Positions 28,500 to 64,000 of a stretch of 64,000 nucleotides of DNA are shown in pieces. The translations under genes were made by a program, and so were the position numbers. This DNA comes from Eledone cirrhosa (Eukaryota). Every line of letters starts with the position of its first letter. Positions within the stretch are counted from its first letter, which is position 1. The notes under the pieces are model-generated. The model was not told the origin of the DNA. It saw only the letters and a program-made list of their open reading frames with translations, and did not search any database. The stretch spans positions 280,488,001-280,552,000 of the forward strand of contig OZ024743.1 of the NCBI GenBank assembly GCA_964016885.1. The letters run 5' to 3'.

Positions 28500-28672
28500 G
28501 TTACGGCCCTTGCCATTCTGAGTTCAAATCCCGCCAAGGTTAACTTTGCCTTTCATCCTTACGGTGTCGATAAAATAAAATACCAGTAATACACTGGGTA
28601 ATTGCTGGCCTTGTGCCAAAAGTAGAAACAATTATTATTATTGTTATTATTATTGTTATTATTATTATTATT
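28500..28672 (+). mobile_element. SINE 3' portion with (ATT)n tail
   Basis: B-box, core and tail; ATT tract 28631-28672 directly precedes Tx1 copy B. Confidence 0.9.
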
Positions 28673-28878
28673 GGTCTAAGAAGACGTATTTTGCTCGCTC
28701 ACAGTAAGTCGCTTTATTTGCCTGTTAAAATTATTTGTTGTTAAATATTTCTTGTTGTGTAAGGGATATAAGCCCTTAGACTTTGCCCCGTGAAGGGGAA
28801 AGTATAATATTTGGGCCTTTTGGCCCAAATATTTGAACTTTCTTTACATGTTAAAAAATTTACGAAGAAAAAAAAAAC

Positions 28879-30650
28879 ATGGCTGAGCCACGCCCCACCC
28901 CACCCCACAGCGATATGTTGGCTGTCGTGCGACAACGACGTAGAAGTATAGAGGAGCGCTACAGCGAAATTAACACACATTGATAACACAAGCACCACCA
29001 CAAACAATGTAAACAAAGACACCAATGATACCAATGAGAACTCTAATTTTGAAAAAAATGACAGTAACAGCGACAACGAAAATACAGATAACGAAAAAAA
29101 ATACAGATAACAAAAAAAAAAATATCAAATACAACAACAATATCAACACCACTAACATGAAAACAAATAGCGACAACACCAACAGCAACAATACCAACTG
29201 CACCGAGAACAACGGTGGCAACAAAGGCAACAATTATAACAGCGACAGTGCTAACAACAACACCAACAAGAACAACGACAAAGACCACAACACCCCCAAC
29301 GAAAACAAGGAGAACACTTTCGCTGCGGCAGCAGCAAAAAAGAGGCCATGCTTCAACATGGACCTCTCAAACAAAGATGAAAAGTTGGCCCAGGCATGGA
29401 AGCTCATCAAGCAAGAGCAAACCTGGGCCAACTCAACTGTCCCGGTAGAAGCTATTGAGGCAGTGGAGCGCAGAACGGTGCATTATAGATGCATCTCAGC
29501 ACAAACCAAAAGGGCAGCTTTAATCCCACAAGAAGATGTCGAAATCGCGCTGAGGTGCATCAGAGAAGACACCCAGTACATAGAGAGGGGCAGACAGTAC
29601 GGCACCATTTCGGTGTTGTTCAAGTCAGAAGCCCTCGCTATGAAACACGCTATGACTCCTTGCAAAACCAGCAAGGTCATAATGTACCCCTTCCACATGG
29701 GAAAAAGAACGGCCCGTCTCCGCATTCAGTGTTTTGTTTGTGGGGAAAAAACCCATTTGGGAGCCTTCTGCCCTCAACTGTTGAAAGAGGCAAAGGGTCG
29801 AAAGGCTCCACTGCTTTCGACGCCGGGGCGAGGACCACAACCAACACCAGTACCGGCAAAATCACCAACAACAACACCAATAGAAAGACCACCACCAACA
29901 TTGACCACCCAGCGGGGAAACGAGGAAAGCTGTCAAATTCCCCCTCCCCCCCCCAAAAAAAATACACACACCAATAAAACCATAAACATACATACAGACA
30001 CACTTACAGACACAGACCCCTCATCTACCAGTAGTGAAGATGAGGGAAAACCAAAATCCCCAAAATACAAAAAAGGAAACACAAAAAGAAAAAAAAACTC
30101 AACAAAGCACAAAATCACCCACAATGAAAAACGCAGAAACCACCCACGAAAACATCTCTCCAATAACACCAACATCAACACCACCATCACCATCACCAGA
30201 ATCCCCCAAACGCAAGAACAAATATACATACAAAGATCTGAAACCACAGACACCGCACTCACAACAAACACAGATACAACCGAAACAACACCACCAAAAC
30301 CATCACCACCACAGCCACGCAAACAAATAAAATCACACCAACAAAACATACAAAACTTCGTGCTCGTCAGGAGGGCCAACAAGGAACTGATGACCCTCGT
30401 AGCACGAAGTGAAAATATACAAAAAGAGGGGGACATTTTTAAATCGAGCACATTTCGTGTGCCGGAAGATTTGGTTCTAGTGCGAATGTCGCTCGACATA
30501 TTCAACGAAATACGAGACAGCTTTCCTCGGGACGTGGGAGCCCCGAACGTAAAACCCACTTCAAGACTTTTAAAGGGGTTCCCAAAAGAAACCCCACCAA
30601 CTATGGAGGTCGAACAACCCGACCTTCACAAGAGCCCGGAAGGTAAGTAA
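28879..30650 (+). pseudogene. Tx1 ORF1, frameshifted with internal deletion
   Basis: MAEPRP start out of frame with ORF 29025-30650; CCHC CFVCGEKTHLGAFC; lacks about 77 aa present in copy C. Confidence 0.85.
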
Positions 30651-30681
30651 ACCTTCCTCTCTCTTTGTTTAACCTGCCAAC

Positions 30682-33600
30682 ATGGCCGTATTAAGAGTAG
30701 GATGTTTAATTGTTCGAGGCCTGGGATCGTCCTGGAAGCAGGGTCACCTGCTCAACAACCTCGGGTCTATAGAAATGGATGTAATTGTAGTCAGCGAGAC
30801 CAGGTATCCGACACGCGCGCACTAGCCCCCATTTTCGACGACTATCAGATCTTTGCATCTGTTAACCGGCCAGGAATGGGAGGCGGGGTGGCAGTGCTGT
30901 TTAGGAAAGGCCTGGATCTCGAGGTAAGGTCGATCTTCCGGGACCCGGGCGGGAAGTTGGTGGTTCTGGACGTGAACAATAACGAAGGTGGTGCCTTTAG
31001 ACTGGTGGCCATCTATGCTCCTACTGGGGCAGGACGGCCGGACTTCTTTAGACGCCTGGAAGCCTTTCTGGGTACGTCTCGCCCTTTACTGTTAGCGAGG
31101 GACTGGAATGGCATCTTAGACGCACGCTGGGACTGTGTGGGAGTATCCGATAGGAGCGGGGGGCGCAAAAGCCTCAAGAACCTGATCAGCCTGTTCCAAC
31201 TGTCTGACAGGTACCGACTAGATTTCCCTAATGCGCCAGCGTGGATCTGGGCTAACCGCATAGGGTCATCTAGATCGTATATAGACAGGATATTCATTAG
31301 GAAAATAGACAGAAATAGTGTAAGCTGTCCACGTTTTGAAACGGTCGCCTATTCAGATCACAAGTTTGTGATCTGTATGTTCGACCTAGATAAGACGCGT
31401 AGGTTAGCACCTGGTTACTGGAAGCTAAACATGTCATTTCCGGCACGTAAGGCTTACAGGGACCAGGTCAACAATTTAGTTAAGAAAAAGTTGACAGGGG
31501 GAGTCGTCAACAATAGATGGTGGGGGGCTCTCAAAAGAGAGATTAGAGTAATGTCGATAGAGTTTAGCAAAGAAGTAGCGTTAGAGAAAAATAGAAAGGA
31601 GGGGGAGTTGGTAGATAAGTTAGACGAGGCTATTGGTAGTGGCATTGCAACTGACGTGCTAGCGGCGAGAATGGCATTAGACCATTTCTTCAATGCGAAA
31701 CACGAAGGTTGCATTGTCAGAGCTAAGGCGCGTGCTCTGAGAAATGAGGGAACCAAAGCTGTTCGATGGGCCCGCGTGGCAGAGGCGCAGCGTGGTAATA
31801 AAACCACGATTCGGTCTTTGACGGACCGAGACGGGCACGAGCTGACCGATTCCAAGAGATGTGTGAGGCCTTTCGCCAACATTTTGCTCGGTTGTTCGGG
31901 GGAAGTGGCGAGTCAGATTAGGTGGCGTGTCAGAGATGGTGGCGGACTTCAGTCCCTATCTCGATGGCTTGCCGCAACTCTCAACGGCTGACGCTGGGCG
32001 CTGCGAAAGGCCAATTACTTCAGCCGAGATTCAGGATGCCCTTGTCGGCTGCATGAGGCGCAAGTCACCCGGTTTGGATGGTCTGTCCTACGAGCTTTAC
32101 GTAAATATGCCAGACTTGTTCTCCAATCTCCTCGAAGCTCTCTACTGCAACTGTCAGCAAAACGGGAGTATTCCCAGTTCTGTGAGATGGGGCGTAGTGA
32201 CGCTGATAAGGAAAGACGAGAAAAATAGGGACACATTAGACAATTTCAGGCCCATAACTCTGCTCAACACAGAGTTTAATATTTTGGCCAGGGTGTTAGC
32301 AAAGTGGTTGGCGCTTGTCGTCGGGGATTTGGTTAGGGAGGCGCAAACTTGCGCAATCCCAACCAAGTCCATACACGACAACCTCCACCTAATGCGATAC
32401 GTCATAGAGAGGGTAGGATGTAAACCTGGCTTCGGTGGGGCTCTGCTCAATTTAGATCAATCGAAAGCATTCGATAGGGTCGACCATCGGTACCTGGAAA
32501 GTGTCTTCAAGGCGGCTGGCTTCGGCCCTGTCTTCAGAGCTGGATCGCTGCAATGCACAGCGGCACCTGCTCGATGGTCAAAATTAATGGCCACCTCTCG
32601 GAACCGTTTCAGGTCTCCCGATCGGTCCATCAAGGGTGCTCTCTCTCTCTCCTCCCTTCTGTACGTATTGACTCTCGAGCCTTTACTGCGGAAGCTGGAG
32701 CTGTTGCAGAGCATCCCGCTCGAACCGAGACGCGGAAAGGCTGTGTCGGTTTATGCGGACGACATCACCGTGATGGTGGCGGACACCTCAGAAATCGAGG
32801 TGGTCGGCAACTTATTGGAGGAATGTGAAAGGTTGACGGGAGCAAAACTTAACACGGAAAAGTCAGTAGGCTTGCAAATAGGCACCTGGAGAGGCAAGTC
32901 CATGCCGTCCAACAGCGTCGTTAGGCGCTGGACGGACGGACCGGTAAAGTTGCTAGGGGTTTGGTTCGGGCCAGACCTCCAGGTGGATAAGAATTGGGAC
33001 GAGGTGACGGGCAGGGTAGCCAGTCTCACCCAGAAATGGGCTGGGATGAAGCTATCACTGAGAGGTCGGGCGGAGGTGGCGAACGCGTACATCGCGTCCG
33101 TCATCTACTACCGTCTGACTATCGTCCCTTGCCCCCGTTCGCGCCTCGCCATCTTGGAGCGGCTTTTCTTCAAATTCTTGTGGAGGGGTCAGGTTCCGCT
33201 GGTGAGGCGGTCCATCTGCTGCCAGCACCCTCTACGTGGAGCGCTGGGCATGCCGTGGTTAATGATGCGCAGGCACGCGCTGAGGCTGCGGCATCTCCAG
33301 AATTTCTGCCTAAACGGTGAACAGGTGTGGTCGCCGTTTGTCAGACGGGCCTTTCCGCAGCTCGTTTCCTTGACTGAGCTGCAGTCCTGGGTCAAGAAGA
33401 GACTGAGACTGGGTGACTGGCATCTGGAATGTTTCCAGGCACTCACTGCCCTCTACCAGGCGGGCAATGCGGTCAGTGGAACTTCCACTCTCGAGTTCAA
33501 ATAGAGGATTAGTGGTGGGAAAGTGCGACGACGCATTCGGAGAGGCTCTGGGAGTCAACGAAGTCGAACTAACCAGTCTGTACCGGAGGACTTTCGAACC

Positions 33601-34127
33601 GGGGACGATGGATAATTTCCAAAAATCCCTCGCTCGCTTGGCAGTGCTACCGGGGGTCACTGCCGGTTCGAGATAAACTCTACAAGCACGGAAGTGCTGT
33701 CAGACGGACCTGCTTGAGATGCACGCAGAGCGACGAAACCGTTCTGCACGCACTCGTCCAGTGTCCGTGCATTACTGACTTGTGGAGTTATGTTAAACAG
33801 CTGTTGTCGCTTGTAGAACGGATCCGGCTATCAGCCGAGTCCATAGTGAAGATCGACCCGCCGCCTTCTTTTGGCCAGGAAGGGCAGGCAATTTTCCTCT
33901 GTCTGGTGGCAGTAGCGAAAGAGGTTGTATGGTGGACGAGGTTGAAAGGACTGAAGACAGACACTTTTCTCTTCGGCCAATCCCTCATCAACTTTTTCAA
34001 GTTTCACTTGGAAAGGAAGGTGAGGGTGGAGAGAGAAGTGCTTCCCCCCAGTACATTTGCTGAAAGGTGGGTGAATGTGGCGAGAATGGCCCGTGTGAGT
34101 GAGCCTACTCTGGTCATGCGGCTGTAG
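30682..34127 (+). pseudogene. Tx1 ORF2 (APE-RT), disrupted
   Basis: Pieces 30702-31991, 31927-33504, 33413-33676 and 33714-34127 are collinear with intact ORF2. Confidence 0.92.
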
Positions 34128-34446
34128 GTAGGTAAATTTGAGGAGGAGAGGGGTGCCCTTCCAGGGTGCTCTCGAAGCGTCGGGTCGTTCAGGACTGGTG
34201 GTGTACCTGAGCGAACCCTAGGTGGTCATCCCTCTATTGGGGAATTTTTTCTTGTTGTAATTTTATTGTTACTTTATTGTTACTTTGTTATTGTTACTTT
34301 GTTTATTTATATTGTTTACTCGATTTTTTTGTAAAACCCCACTGTCCCAGTCTTTTGTATTGTCCCCTATATGTCGGCCCTTGTGGCCAATAAATGAAAT
34401 CGTTATTATTATTATTATTATTATTATCATTATTATTATTATTATT

Positions 34447-37400
34447 CTTTGGGTCTCAGTCATTGATGTTATTTAACTGGAAAGTTTGTTGAAATGAATA
34501 TCAAGCCGCTACCTGCAACCTCAGATATTCAGAACGTATCGGAGGATTATTGCTGTTCCCAGCAAGCATGCCTTTTGAAGTGTTCCAAAAAGCGGGGCTG
34601 GACTAATCTTCTTTAACCATCATTGGAAACTCTTTGAGATAGTACCTAGTACGCCTATGACAATCGGGACGACTTTGACTTCATAGCAGTTCCAAATCCT
34701 TTTTACCTCCCACTTTAAGTCCTGGTATCGGTTAATTTTCTCCCTCTTTTTTTCTTGCACTCTCGTGTCAAATGAGCAGGCTACATCTACAATCAGGCAC
34801 GATCTTTTTTCCTTGTCCAAAACCACCAGGTCAGGCCTATTGTGTTCTAATTTCTTGTCCGTCTGTATCCTAAAATCCCATAGCACCTTCACCTGATCGT
34901 TTTCTATCACCGACTCTGGCTTATGCTCATACCACTTCTCAGAATGTGGTAAATTGTTTACTTTGCATAGATTCCAGTGGATCACCCTGCCCATCACATC
35001 ATGTCTCCAGCCTTTATAGTGAGTCTGGGCTTGGTGTTTACACTCGAATACAATGTGAGCCACAGTCTCCTCTCTCTCTCTCCACAGATCCTACACAGTG
35101 GGCTAGTCTCCTCCTTGTAAATATGGTGTTTCAGCCACTTCGTTTTGAGGGCCTGCTCTTGCGCAGCCATTAGCATTCCTTCTGTAGCCTTTTTAAGGTC
35201 TCCTCTTTTCAACCAGTTCCATGTATTTGGATCTCTAAATTCAGTTTTCTCAAAGAAAGTACTATGAAGGGATTTTTCATGAAGGTTGCTCTTTCTCCTT
35301 GTTGTTATTTCCTCCTTGGACATCTCCTGGTCTATTGTCCTCTCCTTCAGTACAATTCTGAGCATTGGCTCCCTACTATCAGTCACGTATTTGTGTAGGT
35401 TGTTTCTCTCCATCTGAACACAGTCCTCTATGCTGATAAGACCTCTTCCACCTTCAGATCTCCTTAAGTAGAGTCTATCGACATCACTCCTCCAGTAAAT
35501 TGAACAAAAAGAAATGGATAGGAAGAATAGGAAGCTATTGACTATCTACAACATGTTCCACGAGAGGAGTGATGTCGATAGACACAGGCTAGGACAAGAT
35601 TTGGTTGATATCCTAAACTTAGTGGTAGATGAAATGCACAATTTACCCCTCTTCATCACAAGGACACCACACTTACTAATACCAAATTGCATACATATAT
35701 CATTGCTGAAAATACGGACAGTGTCAACAAGCACATCCAACTCCTTCTCACTCTTTCCGAAGAGCTTAAGATCGTCCATGAAGAAGAGGTGATTGATGGT
35801 AAGCTCTCCCTTTCCCAACTTGTATCCTGCTCTCACTTTTCGCAGTATAATGGTCAGGGGGATCAGGGCAAGGACAAACAACAGAGGGGACAAACTATCT
35901 CCCTGGAAGATACCTCTCTTGATCTTCACGCCTCCCAAGGATTCTCCGCCCGATGTTAACTCTGTTTTCCAGGACTTCATACTTTTACTCAACAACTGTC
36001 TGATGTTATCTGCCACGCTGAAGATCTCTAGGCTTTTGGTTATCCAAGAATGCGGAACCATGTCCCATGGCAAGAACAGTGTGTCTCCTCCTGCCATTCC
36101 TCATTACCATCTTATCAATAAGTAACTGGTCCTTTGTACCACGGGACTTCTTTCGGCATCCTTTCTGTTCGTCCGGTAACAAGTTGTTTATGTGGAGGTG
36201 ATGGTAGATTTCCTCAGACAAAATGCTTGTTAACAGTTTCCACATTGCGGACATACATGTGATAGGTCTATAGTTGGTAACATCATTACCCTTGGTTCGG
36301 TCTTTCATTACCAGAACTGTGGTACCTTTTGTCAACCACTCTGGTACCTCATCCGACATCAAGCAGTCATTGAACATGGTTGTCAGTTTCGGGTGGAGGG
36401 ATGTTATATTTCTAATCCGATACCATCTGGGTCTGGTGATTTCCAGTTGGTTAGTTTTCTGGCCTGCTCCTTAAGAGTTTTAACTGTGATACTCAAATTA
36501 GTTTGTTGGTGTGCCTGTTCACTAATCTCCTTTTGTACTGTCTCAATCCACACTGCCTGATCATTATGTTTAACATCCTGCTCCCATATTCCTCTCCAGA
36601 ATGTTTGTTCCGCCTCAGGGATCAAGTCGTTGCCTCTTCCTTTCCCTTCAAGCTGTCCAAACAACATCTTCTGGTTGTTGTCAAACATGCGGTTCTGTCT
36701 ATACTGAATGACTCTGCTCTCGTATCGCCTAATCTTTGCGCTCTTTGCTACTACGCGTTGCTTCAGTTCCTCTATGATAATATTTAGCTTTTTCCTCCTA
36801 GTTTTGTACTTTATTTCCAGTCTATTTTTAGTGTCTATGTTTTGTAGTGTCCCATTCAGTAGGGACTCAAGCTTTCCAATGTCATTTCTCATTTCCCTGA
36901 TTTGACCATTCAGTCGTTTCTTCCACCAAGGTTCTGATCTTTCTTGTTTGTTGTTTTCTCTCACTTTTATGCCAAGTAATTTCCTCATCGCATTTGCTGT
37001 TGCTTTGAGGATATTGTTGCACTGGTGAAGGTTCCTCGCCTCAAGGTATTGGATGACTTTGTTTACCTTAGCTGTTGTTTCTTTTAACTTTTTCCTTTCT
37101 ACAAATCTTAGGTTCATAGGTTTCCCACTATCATTGTTCATTTCATCTACCACTAAGTTTAGGATATCAACCAAATCTTGTCCTAGCCCGTGTCTATCGA
37201 CATCACTCTTCTTGTGGAACATGTTGTAGATAGTCAATAGCTTCCTATTCTTCCTATCCATTTCTTTTTGTTCAGCAACATTCCATTTCAGAATTCCCGC
37301 ACTGTACCTAATAATAGACACAGCTCGGGAATTTACTGCACTTATGGCATTCCTACTGTTCAGATGTGACTTTAATACGCTCCTTACTCTCCGAATGTAT

Positions 37401-37646
37401 TCAGATCTTATCAATTCCTTCATTTTTTTGTTCTTGGTGTCATCAACCTCCAGAACATCCAAATACTTGTGTCCTTCTTCAGTGTCAATTTCCTTTATCA
37501 TCTCACCTGTTGGTACCTGGATTCCGTTGCTTCTGCTCAATTTACCCCTCTTCATCACAAGGACTCCACACTTACTAATACCAAATTGCATACATATATC
37601 ATTGCTGAAAATACGGACAGTGTCAACAAGCACATCCAACTCCTTC
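34447..37646 (-). mobile_element. Decayed, internally rearranged R4/Dong-like RLE retrotransposon
   Basis: RT (FMDD, QGDSLS), CRICGE..HIV..C, RHD and RPD motifs in broken frames; an RT segment is placed upstream of the N-terminal region; inverted insert at 35503-35636. Confidence 0.9.
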
Positions 37647-37659
37647 TTTATTATTATTG

Positions 37660-37874
37660 TGAATTGGCAGTATTGGTAGAGGGTCAGACAGAGGGCGGTG
37701 AATTGGCAGTATTGGTAGACAGTCAGACACGTTTTCCAGCGTAGTTACGTCCCTTTACGATCTGAGTTCAAATCCCGCTGAGGTTAACTTTGCCTTTCAT
37801 CCTTACGGGGTCGATAAAATAAAGTACCAGTTATGTACTGGGTAATTGCTGGCCTTGTGCCAAAAGTAGAAACA

Positions 37875-37923
<49 letters not shown>
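37660..37923 (+). mobile_element. SINE with duplicated 5' head and (ATT)n tail
   Basis: GTGAATTGGCAGTATTGGTAGA twice, B-box, core, tail, ATT tract 37876-37923. Confidence 0.9.
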
Positions 37924-37925
<2 letters not shown>

Positions 37926-37930
37926 TGATA

Positions 37931-38133
37931 GGGCGGTGGATTGGCAGTATCGGTAGAGGGTCGGACGCCATGCTTTCCAGCATAGTTACGTCCCTTTACG
38001 ATCTGAGTTCAAATCCCGCCGAGGTTGACTTTGCCTTTCATCCTTACGGGGTCGATAAAATAAAGTACCAGTAATGCACTGGGTAATTGCTGGCCTTGTG
38101 CCTAAAGTAGAAACAATTATTATTATTATTATT
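37931..38133 (+). mobile_element. SINE, full length, in tandem with previous copy
   Basis: GGGCGGTGGATTGGCAGTATCGG..GAGTTCAAATCC..GTAGAAACA(ATT)n; tail abuts the Dong 3' end. Confidence 0.92.
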
Positions 38134-41100
38134 GTTATTGTTATTCCTTGAATCTCAGTCATTGATGTTGGTTAACTGGAAAGTCCGTTGGATTGAATAT
38201 CAAGCCACTACCTGCAGCCTCAGATATTCAGGACGTATCGGAGGGTTCTTGCTGTTCCAAGCAAGCATGCCTTTTGAAGCGTTCCAAAAAGCGTGAAGGG
38301 GCCGATTTTCTTTAACGATCCCTGGAAACTTTTGGAGATAGTCCCCAGTGCGCCTATGACAATCGGGATCACTTTGACTTCATGGCAGTTCCAAATCCTT
38401 TTCATCTCCCACTTTAGGTCCTGGTATCGGTTAATTTTCTCCCTCTCCTTCTCCTGCACTCTCGTGTCGAACGGGCAGGCCACATCCACAATCAGGCACG
38501 ATCTTTTTTCTTTGTCCACAACCACCAGGTCAGGTCTATTGTGTTCCAGTTTTTTGTCCGTCTGTATCCTAAAATCCCACAGCACCTTCACCTGTTTGTT
38601 CTCCATCACCGCCTCTGGCCTATGCTCATACCATTTCTCAGAATGTGGTAGATTGTTTACTTTGCACAGGTGCCAGTGGATCACCCTGCCCATCACATCG
38701 TGTCTCCAGCCCTTATAGTGGGTCTGGGCTAGGTGTTTACACTCGGACACAATGTGAGCCACAGTCTCCTCTCTCTCTCCACAGATCCTGCACAGTGGGC
38801 TAGCCTCCTCCTTGTAGATATGGTGCTTCAACCACTTCGTTTTGAGGGCCTGCTCCTGCGCAGCCATTAGCATTCCTTCTGTAGCCTTTTTGAGGTCTCC
38901 TCTTCTCAACCAGTTCCATGTCTGTGGATCTCTAAATTCAGTTTTCTCAAAGAAGGTACTATGAAGGGATTTTCCCTTAAGGCTGCTCTTCCTCCTTGAT
39001 GTTATTTCCTCCCTGGACATCCCCTGGCCTACTGTCCCCTCCTTCAGTACAGTTCTGAGCATTGGCTCCTTACTATAGGTCACGTATTTGTATAGGTTGT
39101 TTTTCTCCATCTGAACACAGTCCTCTATGCTGATAAGACCTCTTCCACCCTCAGATCTCCTTAGGTAGAGTCTATCGACATCACTCCTCTTGTGGAACAT
39201 GTTGTAGATAGTCAATAGCTTCCTAGTCTTCCTATCCATTTCTTTTTGTTCAGCAACATTCCATCTCAGAATTCCCACACTGTACCTAATAATAGACACA
39301 GCTCGGGAATTTACTGCGCTTATGGCATTTCTGCTGTTCAGATGTGACTTCAATACGCTCCTTACTCTCCGAATGTATTCAGTTCTTAACAATTCCTTCA
39401 TTTTTTTGTTCTTTATGCCATCAGCCTCCAGAACGCCCAAATACTTGTATCCTTCCTCAGAGTCAATTTCCTTTATCATCTCACCTGTTGGTATCTGGAT
39501 CCCGTTACTTCTGCTCAACCTACCCCTCCTCATCACAATGACTCCACATTTACCAATACCAAACTGCATACATATATCACTGCTGAAAATACGGACAGTG
39601 TCAACAAGCACATCCAACTCCTTCTCACTTTTCCCGAAGAGCTTAAGATCGTCCATGAAGAGGAGGTGATTGATGGTAAGCTCTCCCCTTCCCAACTTGT
39701 ATCCTGCTCTCACTTTTCGCAGCATAATGGTCAAGGGCATCAGGGCAAGGACAAACAACAGAGGGGACAGGCTATCTCCCTGGAAGATACCTCTCTTGAT
39801 CTTCACGCTTCCCAAGGATACTCCAGTTGATGTCAACTCTGTCTCCCAGGACCCCATACTCCTGCCTAGCAACTGTCTGATGTTATCTGCCACCCTGAAG
39901 ATCTCCAGGCTTTTGGTGATCCAGGAATGAGGCACCATGTCAAATGCCTTTCTGTAGTCTATCCATCCCATGGCAAGATCAGTGTGTCTCCTCCTGCAAT
40001 TCCCCATTACCATCTTATCAATAAGCAACTGGTCCTTTGTACCACGTGACTTCTTTCGGCATCCTTTCTGTTCGTCCGGTAACAAGTTGTTTGTGTGGAG
40101 GTGATGGTAGATTTCCTCAGACACAATGCTCGTCAACAGTTTCCACATTACGGGCAGACATGTGATAGGTCTATAGTTGGTAGCATCATTACCCTTGATT
40201 CGGTCTTTCATTATCAGAACTGTGGTACCTTTTGTCAACCACTCTGGCACCTCACCCGACACCAAGCAGTCATTGAACATGGCCGTCAGCTTCGGGTGGA
40301 GGGATGTTAGATGTTTAATCCAATACCCCTGCACACCATCTGGGCCTGGTGATTTCCAGTTGGTTAGTTTTTTGGCTTGCCCCTTAAGAGTTTCAACTGT
40401 GATACTCAAATCAGTCTGTTGCTGTGCCTGCTCACCGATCTCCCTCTGTACTGTCTCAATCCACCCTGCCTGGGCATTGTGTCTAACATCCTGCTCCCAT
40501 ATTCCTCTCCAGAATGTTTTAGTTTGTTCCGCCCCAGGGATCAAGTCGTTGCCTCTTTCTTTGCCCTCAAGCTGTCCAAACAGCATCTTCTGGTTGTTGT
40601 CGAACATGCGGTTCTGTTTATACTGACTGACTCTGTTCTCGTATCGCCTGATTTTTGCACTCTTTGCTACAATGCGTTGCTTCAATTCCTCTATGATAAT
40701 ATTTAGCTTTTTACTCCTAGTTTTGTATTTTATTTCCAGTCTATTTTTAGTGCCTATGTTTTTTAGTGTCCCATTCAGTAGGGACTCAAGCTTTCCTATG
40801 TCATTTCTCATTTCCCCGATTTGCCCACTCAGTCGCTTCTTCCACCACGGCTCTGCTCTTTCTTGTCTGTTGTTTCCTCTCGCTTTTATACCAAGTAGTT
40901 TCCTCACCGTATTTGCTGTTGCTCTGAGGATATTGTTGCACTGGTGAAGGCTCCTCGCCTCAAGGTATGGGATGACTTTGTTTACCTTAGCTGTTGTTTC
41001 TTTTAACTTTTTCCTGTCTACAAATCTTAGGTTCATAGGTCTCCCACTATCATTGTTCAATTCATCTACTACTAAGTTTAGGATGTCAACCGAATCTTGT

Positions 41101-42928: not shown

Positions 42929-42949
42929 ATGATTATTATTATTATTATT

Positions 42950-51701: not shown

Positions 51702-51741
<40 letters not shown>

Positions 51742-51821
51742 TTTCTCTTTCTCTTAATTTCGAGTATATTTTTTTGACCGGCCACCTTCCTGGTGGCAAG
51801 GTTGTAAAAGAAAAGAAATTG

Positions 51822-55620: not shown

Positions 55621-55718
55621 GCAATTATAATAATACTGGACTGTAGTACGATCGGCTTCAACTATACAAACTCTTGAAAGTCAACAGATGACATAATCTT
55701 GTATCAGTAATGACGGTA

Positions 55719-55756
<38 letters not shown>

Positions 55757-55889
55757 AAGTGAGTAGAGTAGCGTGTGTGTGTTTGTTTGTATGTATGAGT
55801 GTTGCTGTGTGCGCGCATATGTATGCGCGTGTGTGTATGTCGTACGTATAAGTGTCAATAAGTGATTTTTTTTTTTTTTTTTTTTCGCG

Positions 55890-56185
55890 CGGGGACATAG
55901 AAATAATCGGGCTGGATGCCCGATCGCGCAGTTAAACCACTGGGAGTGAAGAACCCCTAGCCCTTGTCAGGGCATTCTTCTAGGAGAAGGCATCTCAGGA
56001 AACTGGGTTAACTCCGACTTAAAACCTGCGGCTCAGTAGTTACCGATGATGTTGATCTTTTCTTCTTTTCGGGTTATAGCTACTGTCGCTCAGAGAGTGG
56101 GATTGGCTCAGTGCACAGTCTTTCCTCACTTTAAAAATATTCGTCACGCACAGGCATTGCACGAGTGCATTAATAATTATTAATA
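55890..56185 (+). mobile_element. Possible short RTE-derived non-autonomous element
   Basis: CAGGGCA..TCTAGGAGAAGG resembles RTE 5'UTR motifs as I recall them; ends in TAATAATTATTAAT. Confidence 0.35.
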
Positions 56186-56352
56186 GTGTACCATTATTAT
56201 TATTATTATTATTATTGACGAAAGTGGATGTACGTTTTTTGAAGCTCCGTGAGTAAGCAATTTTTGAGGATTAATTGTAGAGAATTGTTTATTTTTTGTA
56301 CCGCTGAAGCATTATAAGACATTAATTTGTATCCTGTGAAGGAATAACTCAT

Positions 56353-56380
56353 AATATTTGGGCCTTTTGGCCCAAATATT
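56353..56380 (+). promoter_or_regulatory. Conserved 5'UTR stem-loop of Tx1 element
   Basis: AATATTTGGGCC-TTTT-GGCCCAAATATT, identical at 28806-28833; different-sequence hairpin at 14788-14810. Confidence 0.7.
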
Positions 56381-56425
56381 TGAACTTTATTTTGAAAAAA
56401 ATAATAATTTTTTTCTCAAAAAAAC

Positions 56426-58336
56426 ATGGCGGAGCCACGCCCCCTAGAGGCGGGTCTGCTGTCGTGCAACGGCGACTTGAGCGTTGAGAGGAGAGGTGAG
56501 GCGAGGAGCGCCACCAGCACGAATGTGAGCAGCGACAGTGCCAGCACCAACGGGCCGAGCGGCGCGGAAGGTGGTAACAGCGACAACACCAACACCAACA
56601 AGCCGAACAGCGCAGAAGGTGGTAATAGCGAGAGCACCAACAAAACGAACAGCACAGAGAGTAATAGTAGCGACAGCAGCAGCACCAACAAGGCCAACAG
56701 CACAGAAGGTAACCACGACACAGGGGAGAACAACAACAGCAATAGCAGCAGCAACACCAACAAGAACAACAACAGTGACAACACCAACAAGAACACTTTC
56801 GCTGCTGTGGCAGCGGCTAAAAGGAGACCATGCTACAGCATCGACTTAACCAACAGAGAGGAAAAGTTGGCCCAGGCCTGGAAAATCATAAATCAAGAGC
56901 AGACCTGGGCAAACTTAACTGTCCCGGCAGAAGCCATTGAGGCAGTGGAAAAAAGAACGGTGCATTTCAGATGCATCTCAGTAGAGACAAAGAGGGCAGC
57001 GATAATCGCCCAAGCTGACATAGAAGCCGCACTGAAATACATCAGAGAGGACACAGACTTCATAGAGAGGGGCAGGCAATACGGCACCGTTTCGGTGCTG
57101 TTCAAGTCTGAAGCCCTCGCTGTGAAGCATTCAATGACCCCTTGCAAAACCAGCAAGGTCATAATGTACCCCTCCCACATGGGAAAACGAATAGCACGTG
57201 TGCGCATTCCCAGGATTCCACCAGGACTTGATATGTGGTGGCTCCTGGGTTGCGTAATCGTGGAAGGAACGGATACAGTCCCGGTAGAGGCAACGAGAAC
57301 TGCCAGGGACGACTGGTCCGGGGTTGATCTGGAGATACTGCTCCAAATCAGACCCGAAAACGTAAAAACAATCCCGGACCACATCCGCCTCCAAAACGGG
57401 AGGGTGTTGCATATAATGACTGAGGGCAAAAGGCCGCATTGTTTCCTTTGTGGGGAAACGACACACTTGCGAGCCTTCTGCCCTCAACTGCCGAAAAGCG
57501 CAAGGGGTCGAAAGATTCCACTGCTGGCGACGCCGGGACAAGGACCACCAGCAACACCGTCAACAATGGAACCACCAAAATTGCACACCCAGGAGGGAAA
57601 CGAGGAAAGCTCTCCCATTCCCCCTCCCCCCCAAAATACACACACGAACAAGAACATAAACACTCACTCAGACACAAACACGCTCACAGCCACAGACCCC
57701 TCATCCTCCAGCAGTGAAGATGAGGGAAAACCAAAGTCCCCCAAAATACAAAAAACAAAACACAAAAAAAAAAGAAATCCACAAAGCACAAACACCCCCC
57801 CCAAAAAAAATACACACACCACCCACACAAACATTTTCCCCACAGCATCACCAACACAACCACCAAAATCCCCCAAACGCAAACAAGCTAAACAGACACA
57901 AGAACAAATAGACACACAAACATCAGAAACTACAGACACCCCACCCACAACAAACGCAGACACAATAGAAACAACACTAACAAAGCTATCACCACCACAA
58001 TCACACGAACAAATAAAACCCGAGCAACAAAACATTAAAAACTTCGTGCTTGCCAGAAGGGCCAACAAGGAATTGATGGCCCATGTAGCACGAAGCACAA
58101 ACATCGAAAAAGACGGGGAAACATTTGAAGCGAGCACATTTCGCGTACCAGATAATTTGCTTCTGATGCGAATGTCGCTCGCTTCATACAAAGAAATTCG
58201 AAAGAGCTTTCCTCGGGATGTGGGAACCCCGAACGTAAAACCCACGTCAAGACTATTAAAGGGGTTCCCAAAAGAAACCCCACAAACCATGGAGGTCGAA
58301 CCACCCGACCTTCACAAGACCCCGGAAGGTAAGTAA
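56426..58336 (+). CDS. Tx1 ORF1 protein, 636 aa (S/N-rich repeats, CCHC zinc knuckle, P/T/K-rich tail)
   Basis: Open frame; CFLCGETTHLRAFC fits CX2CX4HX4C; homologous to copies A and B. Confidence 0.92.
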   Translation: MAEPRPLEAGLLSCNGDLSVERRGEARSATSTNVSSDSASTNGPSGAEGGNSDNTNTNKPNSAEGGNSESTNKTNSTESNSSDSSSTNKANSTEGNHDTGENNNSNSSSNTNKNNNSDNTNKNTFAAVAAAKRRPCYSIDLTNREEKLAQAWKIINQEQTWANLTVPAEAIEAVEKRTVHFRCISVETKRAAIIAQADIEAALKYIREDTDFIERGRQYGTVSVLFKSEALAVKHSMTPCKTSKVIMYPSHMGKRIARVRIPRIPPGLDMWWLLGCVIVEGTDTVPVEATRTARDDWSGVDLEILLQIRPENVKTIPDHIRLQNGRVLHIMTEGKRPHCFLCGETTHLRAFCPQLPKSARGRKIPLLATPGQGPPATPSTMEPPKLHTQEGNEESSPIPPPPQNTHTNKNINTHSDTNTLTATDPSSSSSEDEGKPKSPKIQKTKHKKKRNPQSTNTPPKKNTHTTHTNIFPTASPTQPPKSPKRKQAKQTQEQIDTQTSETTDTPPTTNADTIETTLTKLSPPQSHEQIKPEQQNIKNFVLARRANKELMAHVARSTNIEKDGETFEASTFRVPDNLLLMRMSLASYKEIRKSFPRDVGTPNVKPTSRLLKGFPKETPQTMEVEPPDLHKTPEGK

Positions 58337-58365
58337 ACCTTTCCTCTCCCATTCATCCTGCCAGC

Positions 58366-61300
58366 ATGGCCATAAGAGTAGGAAGTTTAAATGTTCGTGG
58401 CCTGGGGTCGCCCTGGAAGCAAGGTCACTTGCTCAACGACCTCAGGTCACTAGGAATGGATGTAATTGCCATCAGCGAGACCAGAATTTCCGACACACGC
58501 GCACTGGCGCCGATTTTCGACGATTATCAGATCTTTGCATCTGTTAGTCGGCCGGGAATGGGAGGTGGAGTGGCTGTGCTGTTTAGGAAATGTCTGGATC
58601 TCGAGGTAAGGTCAATCTTCCGGGATCCTGACGGAAAGTTGGTGGTCCTGGACGTGAGCAATAGCGAAGGTGGTGCCTTTAGACTGGTGGCCGTCTACGC
58701 CCCTACTGGGGCCGGTCGGCCGGACTTCTTTAGGCGCCTGGAAAACTTTCTGCTTACGTCTCGCCCTTTACTGTTAATAGGGGATTGGAATGGCATCTTA
58801 GAAGCACGCTGGGATTGTGTGGGAGTATCTGATAGGAGCGGGGGGTGCAAAAGCCTCAAGTACCTGATCAGCCAGTTTCAACTGTCTGACAGGTACCGAC
58901 TAGATTTCCCTAATGCGCCAGTATGGACCTGGACCAATCGCATAGGGTCATCTAGATCGTACATAGATAGGATTTTCATTAGGAAAAGAGATAGAAATAG
59001 TGTAGGATGTCCACATTTTAAAACGGTTGCCTATTCAGATCACAAGCTTGTGATCTGTATGGTCGACCTAGATAAGACACGTAGGTTAGGACCTAGCTAC
59101 TGGAAGCTAAACATGTCGTTTCCGGCACGTAAAGCTTACAGGGACCGGGTCAACAACTTAGTTAAGCAAAAGTTGACAGGGGGGGTTGTCAACAACAGGT
59201 GGTGGGGGGCACTCAAAAGAGAGATTAGAGCAACCTCGATAGGATTTAGCAAAGAAGTAGCAATAGAGAAAAATAGAAAGGAGGAGGGGCTGATAGCTAA
59301 GTTAGACGAGGCTATTTGTAGTGGCATTGCAACAGACGTGCTAGCGGCGAGAATGGCACTAGACCATTTCTTCAATGCGAAACACGAAGGTTGCATTGTC
59401 AGAGCTAAGGCGCGTGCTCTGAGGAACGAGGGAACCAAAGCTGCCCGATGGGCTCGCTTTGCAGAGACGCAGCGTGGAAATAAAACCACAATTCGGTCTT
59501 TGACGGATCGAGATGGACACGAACTGAGCGATTCCAAGCGGATGTGTGAGGCCTTTCGCCAGCACTTTGCTCGATTGTTCGGGAGGATGGGTGAGTCGGA
59601 GACGGCGGCGGACTTCAGTCCCTACCTCGACGGCTTGCCACGCCTCTCGACGGCCGACGCTGGGCGCTGCGAAGAGCCGATAACATCAGCCGAAATTCAG
59701 GACGCCCTTGTCGGCTGCTCGAGTCGCAAGTCACCCGGTTTGGATGGTCTGCCCTACGAGCTTTACGTAAATATGCCAGACTTGTTCTCCGATCTCCTCG
59801 AAGCGCTCTACTGCAACTGGCAGCAGAACGGGAGCATTCCCAGTTCTGTGAGCCGTGGCGTAGTGACGCTGATAAGGAAAGACGAGAACAAGAGGGACAC
59901 ACTAGATAATTTCAGGCCCATAACCCTGCTCAACACAGAGTTTAAGATTTTGGCCAAGGTGTTAGCGAAAAGGTTGGCGCTTGTCGTCAAAGATTTGGTT
60001 GGGGAGGCGCAAACTTGCGCAATCCCGACCAGGTCCATACACGACAACCTCCACCTCATGCGATACATCATAGAGAGGGTTGGGTGCAAACCTGGCTTCG
60101 GTGGGGCTCTGATCAATTTAGATCAATCGAAAGCATTCGATAGGGTCGACCATCGGTACTTGGAGGCTGTCCTCGAGGCGGCTGGCTTCGGCCCCGTCTT
60201 CAGAAGCTGGATCGCTGCAATGTACAGCGGCATCCGCTCGGTGGTCAAAGTTAATGGCCACCTCTCGGAACCGTTTCAGATCTCTCGATCGGTCCGTCAA
60301 GGATGCCCTCTCTCCTCACTTCTGTACGTATTGACTCTTGAGCCTCTACTGCGGAAGCTGGAGTTGTTGCAGGGCATCCCGCTCGAACCGGGACGTAGAA
60401 AGGCTGCGTCCGCTTATGCGGACGACATCACCGTGATGGTGTCGGACACCTCGGAAATCGAGGTGATCCGCACCCATTTGGAGGAATATGAAAGGTTGAC
60501 GGGAGCAAAACTTAACCCGGAAAAGTCGGTGGGCTTGCAGCTCGGCACCTGGAGAGGCAAGTCCATGCCGTCCAACAGCGTCGTTGGGCGCTGGACAGAC
60601 GGACCGGTAAAGTTGCTCGGGGTTTGGTTCGGACCAGACCTCCAGGTGGATAAGAATTGGGACGAGGTGACGAGCAGGATAGCCAACCTCACCCAGAAAT
60701 GGGCGGAGAGAAAGCTATCACTGAAAGGGCGGGCGGAGGTGGCGAACGCGTACATCGCGTCCGTCATCTACTACCGCCTGACCGTCGTGCCTTGCCCCCG
60801 TCCACGCCTCGCCAATTTGGAACGGCTCCTTTTCAAATTTTTGTGGAGGGGACGGGTCCCGTTGGTGAGGCGGTCCATCTGCTGCCAGCACCCTCTTCGT
60901 GGAGGGCTGGGCATGCCGTGGCTAATGATGCGCAGACATGCGCTGAGGCTGCGACATCTCCAGATATTTTGCCTAAACGGTGAACAGGTGTGGTCGCCGT
61001 TTGTTAGACGGGCCTTTCCGCAGCTCATCTCTTTGACTGAGCTGCAGTCCTGGGTCAAGAAGAGACCGAGACTGGGCGACTGGCATCTGGAATGTTGCCA
61101 GGCGCTCACTGCACTCTGCAAGGTGGGCAATGCGGTCAGTGGAACTTCCACTCAAGATTTCTATAGAGGATTAGTGGAGGGCAAGTGCGATGACGTACTA
61201 GGAGAGGCTCTGGGCGTCAACGAAGTAGAACTGACCAGTATGTTCCGGAGGACTTTCGAGCCGGGGACGATGGATAACTTCCAGAAATCCCTCGCTTGGC

Positions 61301-61785
61301 AGTGCTACCGGGGGGCGCTGCCGGTTCGGGATAAACTCTACAGGCACGGAAGTGCTGTCAGACGAACCTGCCCGAGATGCGCGCAGAGCGACGAAACCGT
61401 TCTGCACGCACTCGTCCAGTGTCCGTGCATTGCTGACTTGTGGGGTTATGTCGAACAGCTATTGTCGCGTGTAGAACGGATCCGGCTATCGTCCGAGTCC
61501 ATAGTGAAGATTGACCCGCCGCCTTCTTTTGGTCAGGAAGGGCAGGCAATTTTCCTCTGCCTGGTGGCAGTAGCGAAAGAGGTTGCATGGTGGACCAGGT
61601 TGAAAGGACTGAAGACAGACACTTTTCTCTTCGGCCAATCCCTCATCAACTTCTTCAAGTTTCACTTGGAAAGGAAGGTGAGGGTGGAGAGAGAAGTGCT
61701 GCCCCCCAGTACATTTACTGAAAGGTGGGTGAATGTGGCGAGAATGGCCCGCGTGAGTGGGCCTACTCTGATCATGCGCCTGTAG
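58366..61785 (+). CDS. Tx1 ORF2 protein, 1139 aa (AP endonuclease, reverse transcriptase, Cys/His finger)
   Basis: SLNVRG, ISET, VYAP, GDWN, IDR, SDH; KSPGLDG, FRPITLLN, LDQSKAFD, QGCPLS, YADD; CPRC..ETVLHALVQC. Confidence 0.97.
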   Translation: MAIRVGSLNVRGLGSPWKQGHLLNDLRSLGMDVIAISETRISDTRALAPIFDDYQIFASVSRPGMGGGVAVLFRKCLDLEVRSIFRDPDGKLVVLDVSNSEGGAFRLVAVYAPTGAGRPDFFRRLENFLLTSRPLLLIGDWNGILEARWDCVGVSDRSGGCKSLKYLISQFQLSDRYRLDFPNAPVWTWTNRIGSSRSYIDRIFIRKRDRNSVGCPHFKTVAYSDHKLVICMVDLDKTRRLGPSYWKLNMSFPARKAYRDRVNNLVKQKLTGGVVNNRWWGALKREIRATSIGFSKEVAIEKNRKEEGLIAKLDEAICSGIATDVLAARMALDHFFNAKHEGCIVRAKARALRNEGTKAARWARFAETQRGNKTTIRSLTDRDGHELSDSKRMCEAFRQHFARLFGRMGESETAADFSPYLDGLPRLSTADAGRCEEPITSAEIQDALVGCSSRKSPGLDGLPYELYVNMPDLFSDLLEALYCNWQQNGSIPSSVSRGVVTLIRKDENKRDTLDNFRPITLLNTEFKILAKVLAKRLALVVKDLVGEAQTCAIPTRSIHDNLHLMRYIIERVGCKPGFGGALINLDQSKAFDRVDHRYLEAVLEAAGFGPVFRSWIAAMYSGIRSVVKVNGHLSEPFQISRSVRQGCPLSSLLYVLTLEPLLRKLELLQGIPLEPGRRKAASAYADDITVMVSDTSEIEVIRTHLEEYERLTGAKLNPEKSVGLQLGTWRGKSMPSNSVVGRWTDGPVKLLGVWFGPDLQVDKNWDEVTSRIANLTQKWAERKLSLKGRAEVANAYIASVIYYRLTVVPCPRPRLANLERLLFKFLWRGRVPLVRRSICCQHPLRGGLGMPWLMMRRHALRLRHLQIFCLNGEQVWSPFVRRAFPQLISLTELQSWVKKRPRLGDWHLECCQALTALCKVGNAVSGTSTQDFYRGLVEGKCDDVLGEALGVNEVELTSMFRRTFEPGTMDNFQKSLAWQCYRGALPVRDKLYRHGSAVRRTCPRCAQSDETVLHALVQCPCIADLWGYVEQLLSRVERIRLSSESIVKIDPPPSFGQEGQAIFLCLVAVAKEVAWWTRLKGLKTDTFLFGQSLINFFKFHLERKVRVEREVLPPSTFTERWVNVARMARVSGPTLIMRL

Positions 61786-62065
61786 GCTGGTGAATTCGAG
61801 AAGGAGAGGGGTGCCCTTCCCGGGTGCCCTAGGAGCGTCGGGTGGCTCAGGACTGGTGGGGTGCTTGAGTCAACCCTGGGTGGTGATCCCTCTTATTGGG
61901 GAACTTTCATTGTTGTATTTTTATTGTTATTTTGTTTTTGTTTTTTTGTTATTTATACTTACTCGATCTCTATGTAAACCCCCACTGTCCCTGTCTATTG
62001 TGTTGTCCCCTATATGTCGGCCCTTGTGGCCAATAAATGAAATCATTATTATTATTATTATTATT

Positions 62066-64000
62066 GTTATTGTTATTCCTTGAATCTCAGTCATTGATGT
62101 TGGTTAACTGGAAAGTCCGTTGGATTGAATATCAAGCCACTACCTGCAGCCTCAGATATTCAGGACGTATCGGAGGGTTCTTGCCGTTCCAAGCAAGCAT
62201 GCCTTTTGAAGCGTTCCAAAAAGCGTGGAGGGGCCGATTTTCTTTAACCATCCCTGGAAACCTTTGGAGATAGTCCCCAGTGCGCCTATGACAATCGGGA
62301 TCACTTTGACTTCATGGCAGTTCCAAATCCTTTTCACCTCCCACTTTAGGTCCTGGTATCGGTTAATTTTCTCCCTCTCCTTCTCTTGCACTCTCGTGTC
62401 GAACGGGCAGGCCACATCCACAATCAGGCACGATCTTTTTTCTTTGTCCACAACCACCAGGTCAGGTCTATTGTGTTCCAGTTTTTTGTCCGTCTGTATC
62501 CTAAAATCCCACAGCACCTTCACCTGACTGTTCTCCATCACCGCCTCTGGCCTATGCTCATACCATTTCTCAGAATGTGGTAGATTGTTTACTTTGCACA
62601 GGTGCCAGTGGATCACCCTGCCCATCACATCGTGTCTCCAGCCCTTATAGTGGGTCTGGGCTAGGTGTTTACACTCGGACACAATGTGAGCCACAGTCTC
62701 CTCTCTCTCTCCACAGATCCTGCACAGTGGGCTAGCCTCCTCCTTGTAGATATGGTGCTTCAACCACTTCGTTTTGAGGGCCTGCTCCTGCGCAGCCATT
62801 AGCATTCCTTCTGTAGCCTTTTTGAGGTCTCCTCTTCTCAACCAGTTCCATGTCTGTGGATCTCTAAATTCAGTTTTCTCAAAGAAGGTACTATGAAGGG
62901 ATTTTCCCTTAAGGCTGCTCTTCCTCCTTGATGTTATTTCCTCCTTGGATATCCCCTGGCCTACTGTCCCCTCCTTCAGTACAGTTCTGAGCATTGGCTC
63001 CTTACTATAGGTCACGTATTTGTATAGGTTGTTTTTCTCCATCTGAACACAGTCCTCTATGCTGATAAGACCTCTTCCACCCTCAGATCTCCTTAGGTAG
63101 AGTCTATCGACATCACTCCTCTTGTGGAACATGTTGTAGATAGTCAATAGCTTCCTAGTCTTCCTATCCATTTCTTTTTGTTCAGCAACATTCCATCTCA
63201 GAATTCCCGCACTGTACCTAATAATAGACACAGCTCGGGAATTTACTGCGCTTATGGCATTTCTGCTGTTCAGATGTGACTTCAATACGCTCCTTACTCT
63301 CCGAATGTATTCAGTTCTTAACAATTCCTTCATTTTTTTGTTCTTTATGCCATCAGCCTCCAGAACGCCCAAATACTTGTATCCTTCCTCAGAGTCAATT
63401 TCCTTTATCATCTCACCTGTTGGTATCTGGATCCCGTTACTTCTGCTCAACCTACCCCTCTTCATCACAATGACTCCACATTTACCAATACCAAACTGCA
63501 TACATATATCACTGCTGAAAATACGGACAGTGTCAACAAGCACATCCAACTCCTTCTCACTTTTCCCGAAGAGCTTAAGATCGTCCATGAAGAGGAGGTG
63601 ATTGATGGTAAGCTCTCCCCTTCCCAACTTGTATCCTGCTCTCACTTTTCGCAGCATAATGGTCAAGGGCATCAGGGCAAGGACAAACAACAGAGGGGAC
63701 AGGCTATCTCCCTGGAAGATACCTCTCTTGATCTTCACGCTTCCCAAGGATACTCCAGTTGATGTCAACTCTGTCTCCCAGGACCCCATACTCCTGCCCA
63801 GCAACTGTCTGATGTTATCTGCCACCCTGAAGATCTCCAGGCTTTTGGTGATCCAGGAATGAGGCACCATGTCAAATGCCTTTCTGTAGTCTATCCATCC
63901 CATGGCAAGATCAGTGTGTCTCCTCCTGCAATTCCCCATTACCATCTTATCAATAAGCAACTGGTCCTTTGTACCACGTGACTTCTTTCGGCATCGTTTC
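62066..64000 (-). mobile_element. R4/Dong-like retrotransposon 3' half, running to the window edge
   Basis: Nearly identical to 38134-40068; tail-to-tail with Tx1 copy C. Confidence 0.93.
62152..63996 (-). CDS. RT-RLE polyprotein C-terminal part (open frame, partial)
   Basis: 602-aa ORF differing at only a handful of residues from 38220-41612. Confidence 0.9.

Follow-up and report, generated by a model that had tools for sequence, protein, structure and literature searches.

Evidence that Tx1-type and Dong-type LINEs of Eledone cirrhosa occupy opposite strands of shared (ATT)n tracts, a likely source of polarised nests

Several retrotransposon families insert into simple repeats, among them the Tx1-clade long interspersed nuclear elements (LINEs) Kibi in (TC)n, Koshi in (TTC)n and the crocodilian Tx1 elements in (TTCC)n or (TTTC)n (PMC4494074, PMC3812793), as well as the Dong elements of Bombyx, Anopheles and Biomphalaria, which are described as inserted in (TAA)n (PMC3812793). 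Microsatellite-specific Tx1 elements, (TAA)n-specific Dong elements and a short interspersed nuclear element (SINE) moved by Tx1 are already in print (PMC4494074, PMC3812793, PMC4640811); recent activity of Dong-R4 and L1-Tx1 is recorded for Octopus vulgaris (PMC13282606), and Tx1, Dong-R4, RTE and SINEs are given as large octopus repeat classes, with no discussion of their targets in the available sections (PMC13282606, PMC8967140). Here we analysed a stretch of 64,000 nucleotides from the octopod Eledone cirrhosa (GenBank assembly GCA_964016885.1, contig OZ024743.1, positions 280,488,001 to 280,552,000, forward strand; hereafter the window), together with copies from the whole 3.0 Gb assembly, to which all genome-wide counts below refer. 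We conclude, with a probability of roughly 0.78, that Tx1-type and Dong-type LINEs share (ATT)n/(AAT)n tracts in opposite orientation and leave a tract on both sides of each insertion, likely feeding polarised nests of elements. The arrangement resembles that of TRAS and SART of Bombyx, two R1-clade telomeric LINEs that use opposite strands of one simple repeat and build nested arrays, but differs in combining APE (apurinic-endonuclease-like) and restriction-like nucleases and in using a dispersed microsatellite that the elements themselves enlarge. Like Kibi, Koshi and the crocodilian elements, the Tx1-type family is an APE and reverse transcriptase (RT) LINE of the L1 group lying inside a microsatellite; unlike them, it occupies (ATT)n, has a nested sister lineage on (TATC)n/(TA)n, and has left about 18,000 tails in one genome. 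The Dong-type elements agree with described members of the R4 clade in their (TAA)n on both sides and their single open reading frame (ORF) with RT and C-terminal nuclease, but here two families share the tract with an opposite-strand APE element, and a third, R4-like family uses (ACAT)n. Our literature search, outside which lay Repbase, most subscription papers and the target figure and supplements of PMC4494074, turned up neither a Tx1 specific for ATT or TATC, nor an octopus SINE paired with Tx1, nor arrays of this kind.

The Tx1-type element has the two-ORF architecture of the L1 group and the Tx1 clade. Its ORF2 carries Pfam matches to Exo_endo_phos (the APE), RVT_1 (the RT) and zf-RVT (a C-terminal zinc finger), and its best solved relative is human L1 ORF2 (E 4.6e-56), far above R2. 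ORF1 of subfamily C, which gave no Pfam match up to E 0.1, shows in translation a CCHC zinc knuckle, which we take to be a Tx1 trait. Among named protein relatives of ORF2 the nearest comes from Argonauta (69% over part of the query), and protein searches with the Tx1-type sequence returned no named Tx1 reference (Tx1L, Kibi, Koshi, Keno); the names Tx1, Dong and RTE are used here on the grounds of architecture and targets, not of trees with named references.

The association of this lineage with ATT, supposed in an earlier note drawn from the window sequence alone, held throughout the genome. Using the 115 bases that precede the tail of subfamily C as query, we obtained 867 candidates, of which 40 were scored and 30 fetched, and all 30 tails continue into (ATT)n. 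Directly upstream of the young heads of the same subfamily stand 4-16 ATT units in 64 of 64 distinct copies, always in the single phase ATT/GACG (slash at the junction), against a frequency of 0.00025 for (ATT)4 directly before a random position. Genome-wide, the tail pattern marks 18,169 Tx1-type ends. Among 70 copies in the tail list (one row reassigned by best BLAST hit), 61 belong to the ATT lineage (subfamilies B, C, D1, D2 and E), 57 of these having tails with at least two ATT units, and a (TC)-like repeat follows only one of the 70. Truncated copies extend the ATT enrichment of 5' flanks, with ATTRTT within 22 nt of the 5' junction in 10 of 24 cases against a background of 2.5% (p ~1e-10), and two of them (L349, L342) bear exact 16-17 bp duplications beginning ATTRTT. 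The loci behind these junctions, each spanning 2.4-2.5 kb, are 40 of the 55 ATT-type entries in rows 31-100 of the tail list, so that short truncations alone were visible; L330 and L343 (internal deletions) and L348 (duplicate junction) were excluded. The youngest subfamily C copies fetched are nearly all full length and 99-100% identical, in a search that favoured the best matches, and the family is likely still active, to judge from its sequences. A search of sequencing runs listed no RNA data set; when contigs of four runs with small shares were compared with the Tx1 3' end, three covered the last 40 bases, with thin coverage of the preceding untranslated region (UTR), a weak hint that we did not use as evidence.

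The Dong-type elements encode an RT, a CCHC finger and a C-terminal nuclease region in a single ORF in which Pfam finds no APE domain; the RT is closest to R2 among solved structures, with a weak second match over a PD-like nuclease region, and the best 120 of 1115 relatives include none named Dong or R4. A DNA search with the 3' end found nothing, its words being too common, and was replaced by an exact 34-mer of the young subfamily, which occurs 4018 times; the first 30 occurrences were inspected. In all 30 the 3' end lies in a tract with the element reading (AAT)n, on the opposite strand of the same tract as Tx1, as the earlier note had proposed. Visible truncated 5' ends likewise meet the tract in 12 of 13 cases, and a second Dong family (36% protein identity) uses tracts in the same way. 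Since GTT-interrupted units stand at the joint in 25 of the 30 copies, those preceding the Dong elements at 38146 and 62078 of the window are likely Dong's own tail. Between a full-length 5' end and the tract there is often a transitional (CTT)n run of variable length (L069, L071, L075, L078, L135, L141).

Within the window, ATT tracts were confirmed at 28631-28672, 34402-34446, 42418-42447, 42932-42949, 56193-56216 and 62045-62065, on both sides of all three subfamily B/C Tx1 copies, and the Tx1 ORF2 and Dong ORF that had been named beforehand are both open. The region 28500-42949 is a single unbroken nest of SINE, Tx1 B, Dong, SINE, SINE, Dong and truncated Tx1, joined by ATT tracts, because the Dong at 38146 extends to 42417. 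From left to right (plus strand unless stated), it opens with a SINE whose 5' part is hidden by an N gap (28500-28630) and an adjoining (ATT/GTT)n tract (28631-28672); in this SINE tail, as claimed, Tx1 B begins (28673-34401; full length, broken frames). The final GTT(ATT)5 of this tract is also the opening phrase of the (ATT)n tract separating the Tx1 B tail from a Dong tail (34402-34446), a repetition that target duplication would give. There follow an older Dong-type copy (34447-37644, minus; 5' truncated and rearranged, with an inverted piece at 35501-35642, and 90.5-90.7% identical to the two young copies), a short ATT run with a SINE-head fragment (37649-37691), a SINE (37692-37874; 3' hairpin TGGC-CTTGT-GCCA at 37850-37862), (ATT)17 (37875-37925), a full-length SINE (37927-38115), (ATT)6 with the GTT-interrupted Dong tail (38116-38145) and a young Dong-type element (38146-42417, minus; single open ORF 41612-38220, 5' UTR cut at 42417). 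An (ATT)10 run (42418-42447) is the 5' flank of both this Dong copy and a 5'-truncated, B-like Tx1 (42448-42931), and (ATT)6 (42932-42949) closes the nest.

The second nest is hosted by the 5' UTR of an RTE-type LINE (55861-56192), the body of which continues about 2.95 kb past the window end. It comprises (ATT)8 (56193-56216), the left half of the RTE-borne tract; a young Tx1-type LINE of subfamily C (56217-62044; ORF1 56426-58336, ORF2 58369-61785, 3' hairpin GGCC-CTTGT-GGCC at 62019-62031); (ATT)7 with a GTT-interrupted Dong tail (62045-62077); and a young Dong-type copy (62078-64000, minus), 99.3% identical to that at 38146. In the right-hand neighbouring stretch this Dong proves full length with an internal duplication, followed by (ATT)n and then the RTE body, so that the nest runs from 56193 to about 2.9 kb beyond the window inside the RTE 5' UTR; locus L063 has the same layout. 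The three main Dong copies, with the element proper starting at about 34447, 38146 and 62078, thus sit tail-to-tail with Tx1 B, a SINE and Tx1 C, respectively, as the earlier note had described. A perfect long hairpin (TATTTGGGCC-TTTT-GGCCCAAATA) is conserved in the 5' UTRs of Tx1 C and B (56357-56381 and 28808-28832), which diverge elsewhere.

Each Tx1 insertion turns one tract into two, which agrees with the proposal that insertions create new targets: in 46 paired subfamily C copies the left run averages 8.1 units and the right 7.1, both being at least four units long in 42. One tract in the RTE 3' UTR has on average 7.6 units when empty (n = 5), and five filled examples with both halves intact total 11-15, a gain of about five units, matching a 15-bp duplication. 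ATT tracts of at least five units number about 123,000 genome-wide (95% range 88,000-167,000), from 41 merged tracts in 100 evenly spaced 10-kb stretches of contigs C1-C8, and 26 of these 41 touch a member of the guild of tract-using elements (by automatic labels, one of them based on a CTT run alone). Tails are clustered, with 40 of 99 gaps below 20 kb against 4.6% expected, and elements 0.3-100 kb apart share polarity in 96 of 101 Tx1-Tx1 pairs and 58 of 60 Tx1-Dong pairs, falling to about 50% beyond 1 Mb. Because flanks are doubled, tracts are linked to the guild and tails are clustered with shared polarity, we regard the supply feedback and the polarised nested arrays, both anticipated in the earlier note, as real.

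Part of the supply is carried by the RTE-type LINE, which the earlier note had missed along with the 3' hairpin common to the SINE and Tx1 and the sister (TATC)n and (ATGT)n systems. This element has APE and RT in one frame (broken once), no ORF1, C2H2-like fingers and an (ATGT)n tail, and we presume its RTE affiliation from such traits rather than from a tree. ATT tracts lie in its UTRs. Its end motif occurs 5826 times, the first 30 occurrences being 18 LINE copies and 12 of a short derivative without tracts; 17 of the 18 LINE copies have a tract of at least four units within 420 bp upstream of the motif, so the genome would hold roughly 3,500 carriers. Young Tx1 C heads lie in RTE-borne tracts in 10 of 64 cases against none of 41 random tracts (p = 0.006), and young Dong ends in 3 of 30 (against the same 0/41). 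The RTE flanks are 2.5% divergent and the Tx1 copies inside them 0.75% (five copies), so these are separate insertions, and a Tx1-RTE composite was rejected. The short derivative consists of the RTE 5' UTR and last 40 bases, ending in (ATGT)n (L285, L287, L293, L294, L300, L303, L305, L309).

The flanks, the phase, the polarity, the two tracts after each Tx1 insertion and the independence of the junctions are direct observations; for the events behind them we propose the following. The opposite orientation would likely arise because the unrelated Tx1 and Dong nucleases nick opposite strands. The Tx1 APE would nick the (AAT)n strand, at a top-strand site Y/ATTAT(T), with the RNA end pairing with the primer, and a second nick 7-18 bp away would duplicate about five units; the Dong nuclease would nick the (ATT)n strand and add its own AAC-interrupted tail. 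Two fixed opposite polarities would then suffice for tail-to-tail as well as head-to-head joints, with no contact between the families. The tRNA-type SINE would borrow the Tx1 proteins through a hairpin with a 4-bp stem and CUUGU loop, inserting at relaxed ATTAT sites, and the RTE-type LINE, itself ending in (ATGT)n, would seed new nests through the ATT tracts in its UTRs. Several points weigh against this account. The strand and position of the nicks are read from junctions alone; among the 24 truncated Tx1 5' junctions ATT is partial in four and absent in ten; and the left run of subfamily C does not in every case behave as a simple duplication (four of 46 pairs have 4-9 units on the left and fewer than four on the right), and may be partly derived from the RNA, which makes the full-length heads not fully independent evidence of target choice. 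In addition, the empty-tract mean comes from five copies alone, the polarity pairs are drawn from the first 43 Mb of contig C1 and are not independent of one another, pairs 100-300 kb apart are anti-concordant (17/105 and 9/76), and clustering may partly reflect regional tolerance of long insertions.

One alternative dispenses with sequence-specific nucleases, the (AUU)n tails pairing at pre-existing nicks or in AT-rich context and the tracts being tails grown by slippage. It would accommodate the bare ATTAT sites of SINEs and the truncated Tx1 junctions that lack ATT, and RNA-target pairing at 3' repeats is among the topics discussed for RTE and other LINEs (PMC6007223). However, truncated Tx1 and Dong copies bear tracts on their 5' side, the sister Tx1 lineages (A/F/G) keep a different repeat, (TATC)n, on both sides, some 3' flanks open with the target's own GTT variant (the B copy of the window; C1:114410263), and C is enriched at position -1 of the SINE duplications (16/35 against a background of 18%), so that we consider this alternative quite improbable. 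That the joints were copied by segmental duplication, or by a Tx1-Dong composite moving as a unit, is hardly credible: 29727-35492 does match 57437-63121 colinearly at 87% across the joint, and the distant loci L227 and L348 share both junctions (one duplicated pair among about 70), but the closest Dong pair (99.3%) sits in different hosts, a SINE tail and a Tx1 tail, the two Tx1-Dong joints of the window differ by 9% in both parts, outer flanks differ, and 603 genomic joints mix several Tx1 subfamilies and tract lengths. A single duplication as the origin of the joints is thereby largely refuted. A special link between the families, by which Dong would actively favour Tx1 or SINE tails (or vice versa) over what tract supply predicts, had been part of the earlier note and is also improbable. 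Young Dong ends lie within 68 nt of a Tx1 tail in at least 603 of 4182 cases (14.4%), about 1.7-fold above supply, Tx1 tails making up about 8.6% of tracts (6.4-12%); within 60 nt of a SINE tail they lie in at least 149 of 4182 (3.6%), below a supply of about 8%. Long-tract tails number 10,606 for Tx1 (a similar tail pattern with five or more ATT units) and 9,893 for the SINE, and per tail Dong occupies 5.7% and 1.5%, respectively; in addition, a guild element adjoins the other side of Dong in 26 of 30 cases against 23 of 41 random tracts (p = 0.009). SINE tails are thus under-used, and the Tx1 excess is of a size that either order of insertion, which yields the same joint, could alone produce (up to twofold). 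In the inspected loci the figures are 8/30 against 7/41 (p = 0.39), and the commonest neighbour is of the same kind: Dong stands beside Dong in 13 of 30 cases, and the left neighbours of 64 young Tx1 C copies are Tx1 in 24, RTE-internal sequence in 10, a SINE in 5, a Dong head in 4 (against 9/41 random tracts, p = 0.03) and none in 21.

The SINE is abundant, with 99 matches in 800 kb covering 1.8% of that sample. The earlier statement that SINEs end in (ATT)n applies to three of the nine window copies, which have at least four units; most end instead in a short ATTAT(T) target duplication. Among 62 readable random genomic copies the tail is followed by ATTAT in 51, by at least three units in 8 and by at least five in 2, and SINE tails were rejected as the main source of long tracts on that last count. 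Exact duplications of 7-18 bp flank 35 of the 62 (chance 1.3%), 34 of them starting with ATTAT, and a 5'-truncated copy outside any tract (52356-52468, plus), bearing an exact target duplication about 18 bp long that opens with ATTATT behind a C, shows the short target of the SINE. PMC6007223, citing Ichiyanagi and Okada 2008, gives duplications of 7-18 bp for the L1 group and of 7-15 bp for RTE, and the SINE lengths fit this weakly. A-box-like and B-box-like motifs were read by eye against the Pol III consensus; ARAGORN and Rfam returned nothing for the SINE or the hairpins, and a U2-like look of the hairpin was dropped for want of an Rfam match.

Tx1 families end in a 4-bp stem around a CTTGT loop, with stems GGCC/GGCC, AACC/GGTT and TGCC/GGCA in which pairing is kept, and the SINE ends in TGGC/GCCA around the same loop, followed by GAAA-NN-ATTAT in the register of the ATT-lineage Tx1; two of the four pairs are changed on both sides, that is, compensatorily. 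In 1.0 Mb there are 78 instances of this terminal signature, of which only about one lies elsewhere than at a SINE or Tx1 end, with a rough post-hoc chance of 1e-6 per family. Tx1 is probably, from these sequence features, the partner that mobilises the SINE, with some contrary signs: the likeness spans only about 25 nt, other windows of the Tx1 element score higher than its 3' end (which ranks 6-544 among about 5,800), and one SINE tail, folded as a single sequence, adopted a different stem. The SINE might instead be moved by a CR1, L2 or RTE LINE, the ATTAT site and hairpin being convergent or an old tail capture. The shortness of the likeness, the CR1 and L2 partners published for mollusc SINEs (PMC4824008, PMC4758252, which also name the octopus families OR1, OR2 and OK) and the much looser binding of the SINE than of young Tx1 to tracts would suit this explanation, which we nevertheless find doubtful: in 1.87 Mb no non-SINE sequence bears the SINE tail (141 of 144 occurrences are on SINE bodies and three are truncated), of 11 other inspected LINE pieces those that show a tail have one of (ATG)n type and none has the hairpin at its own end, RTE ends in (ATGT)n, Dong ends are unlike the SINE tail, and the GAAA-NN-ATTAT register is common to the SINE and ATT-lineage Tx1. 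A SINE mobilised by Tx1 would have a precedent in the crocodilian SINEU, thought to be moved by Tx1-Mar on account of a shared target; SINEU has an snRNA head, poly(A), a Mariner target and, for SINEU-1, no shared 3' sequence (PMC4494074), whereas the present SINE is of tRNA type, with a shared 3' hairpin and the ATTAT duplication signature. In stringent pairs (eel UnaL2 and a monocot L1 lineage), SINE and LINE share a terminal hairpin whose loop is conserved while the stem varies with compensatory changes (PMC3747384); the present hairpin is as short and has the same traits, with a shared target signature in addition, but the partner is Tx1-type and the shared region only about 25 nt. A 45-bp unit from the SINE head forms tandem arrays, a SINE-derived satellite, twice beside RTE tails (L286 1826-3027, L289 1946-3025). 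Runs of (ATG)n or (TGA)n come after copies of further LINE families (L142, L146, L177, L194, L262, L266, L269) and may mark one more repeat niche.

The claim that all Tx1 copies of the window are plus and all Dong-like copies minus stands as to strand, but those at 11191-12079, 14659-20242 and 51741-54190 sit in other repeats, and their strand is therefore not explained by the ATT model. The first two belong to a sister Tx1 lineage and lie next to (TA)n or a TATATC-rich minisatellite. This second lineage (A/F/G) accounts for 9 of the 70 copies in the tail list, eight of them followed by TATC or TATA, and (TATC)n is frequent upstream of its truncated copies. A quick RT tree (quick search, midpoint root, unnamed relatives; a careful search was unfinished) unites the TATC families with support 99 inside the ATT families, as the sister of B and C, which suggests that ATT may be the older Tx1 target and TATC a switch. 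The third copy (51741-54190, minus) is R4-like, about 33% identical to the main Dong and flanked by (TATG)n; its relatives adjoin RTE (ATGT)n tails tail-to-tail in L292, L299 and L307, and this is a parallel system outside the ATT system.

Taken more broadly, octopod genomes may be split into microsatellite niches, each occupied by an APE LINE on the plus strand together with its SINE, and by an R4-type element on the minus strand: (ATT)n with Tx1, the SINE and two Dong families; (ATGT)n with RTE, its SINE and the R4-like element; and (TATC)n with the target-switched Tx1. Insertions would multiply their own target, the LINE of one guild would seed the target of another, and Tx1 would have driven the huge expansion of the octopus tRNA-SINE through the CUUGU hairpin. 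We hold the chances of this wider picture, niches included, to be about evenly balanced. The findings themselves point to what likely drives a SINE family that makes up about 1.8% of the sampled genome, and to a feedback, open to measurement, that lets target-specific elements overcome the limited supply of their targets and build arrays of up to about 100 kb. The genome also offers a natural pair of close APE nucleases with different repeats and intact young copies of each player: as the APEs of the ATT and TATC lineages are 72% identical in DNA and split by 21 candidate residues, the choice of microsatellite becomes testable by swaps.

Other features of the window lie outside these systems. 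Broken DDE-transposase-like frames at 43826-44919 (minus), with Atlas look-alikes that include RAG1 RNase H clusters (0.90-0.93), are likely a Transib/Chapaev-type DNA transposon. A frame at 23075-23812 with a match to the Spin-doc zinc finger (PF18658), accompanied by an inverted 117-bp repeat (22269-22385 and 23615-23731), is likely a DNA-transposon remnant. A weak RT match at 2943-4112 (Pfam RVT_1, E 0.0005) falls below the cut-off, and the segment 2448-3070 recurs at 47253-47829. Finally, a tandem repeat with a 173-bp unit in 2.3 copies occupies 9256-9647.

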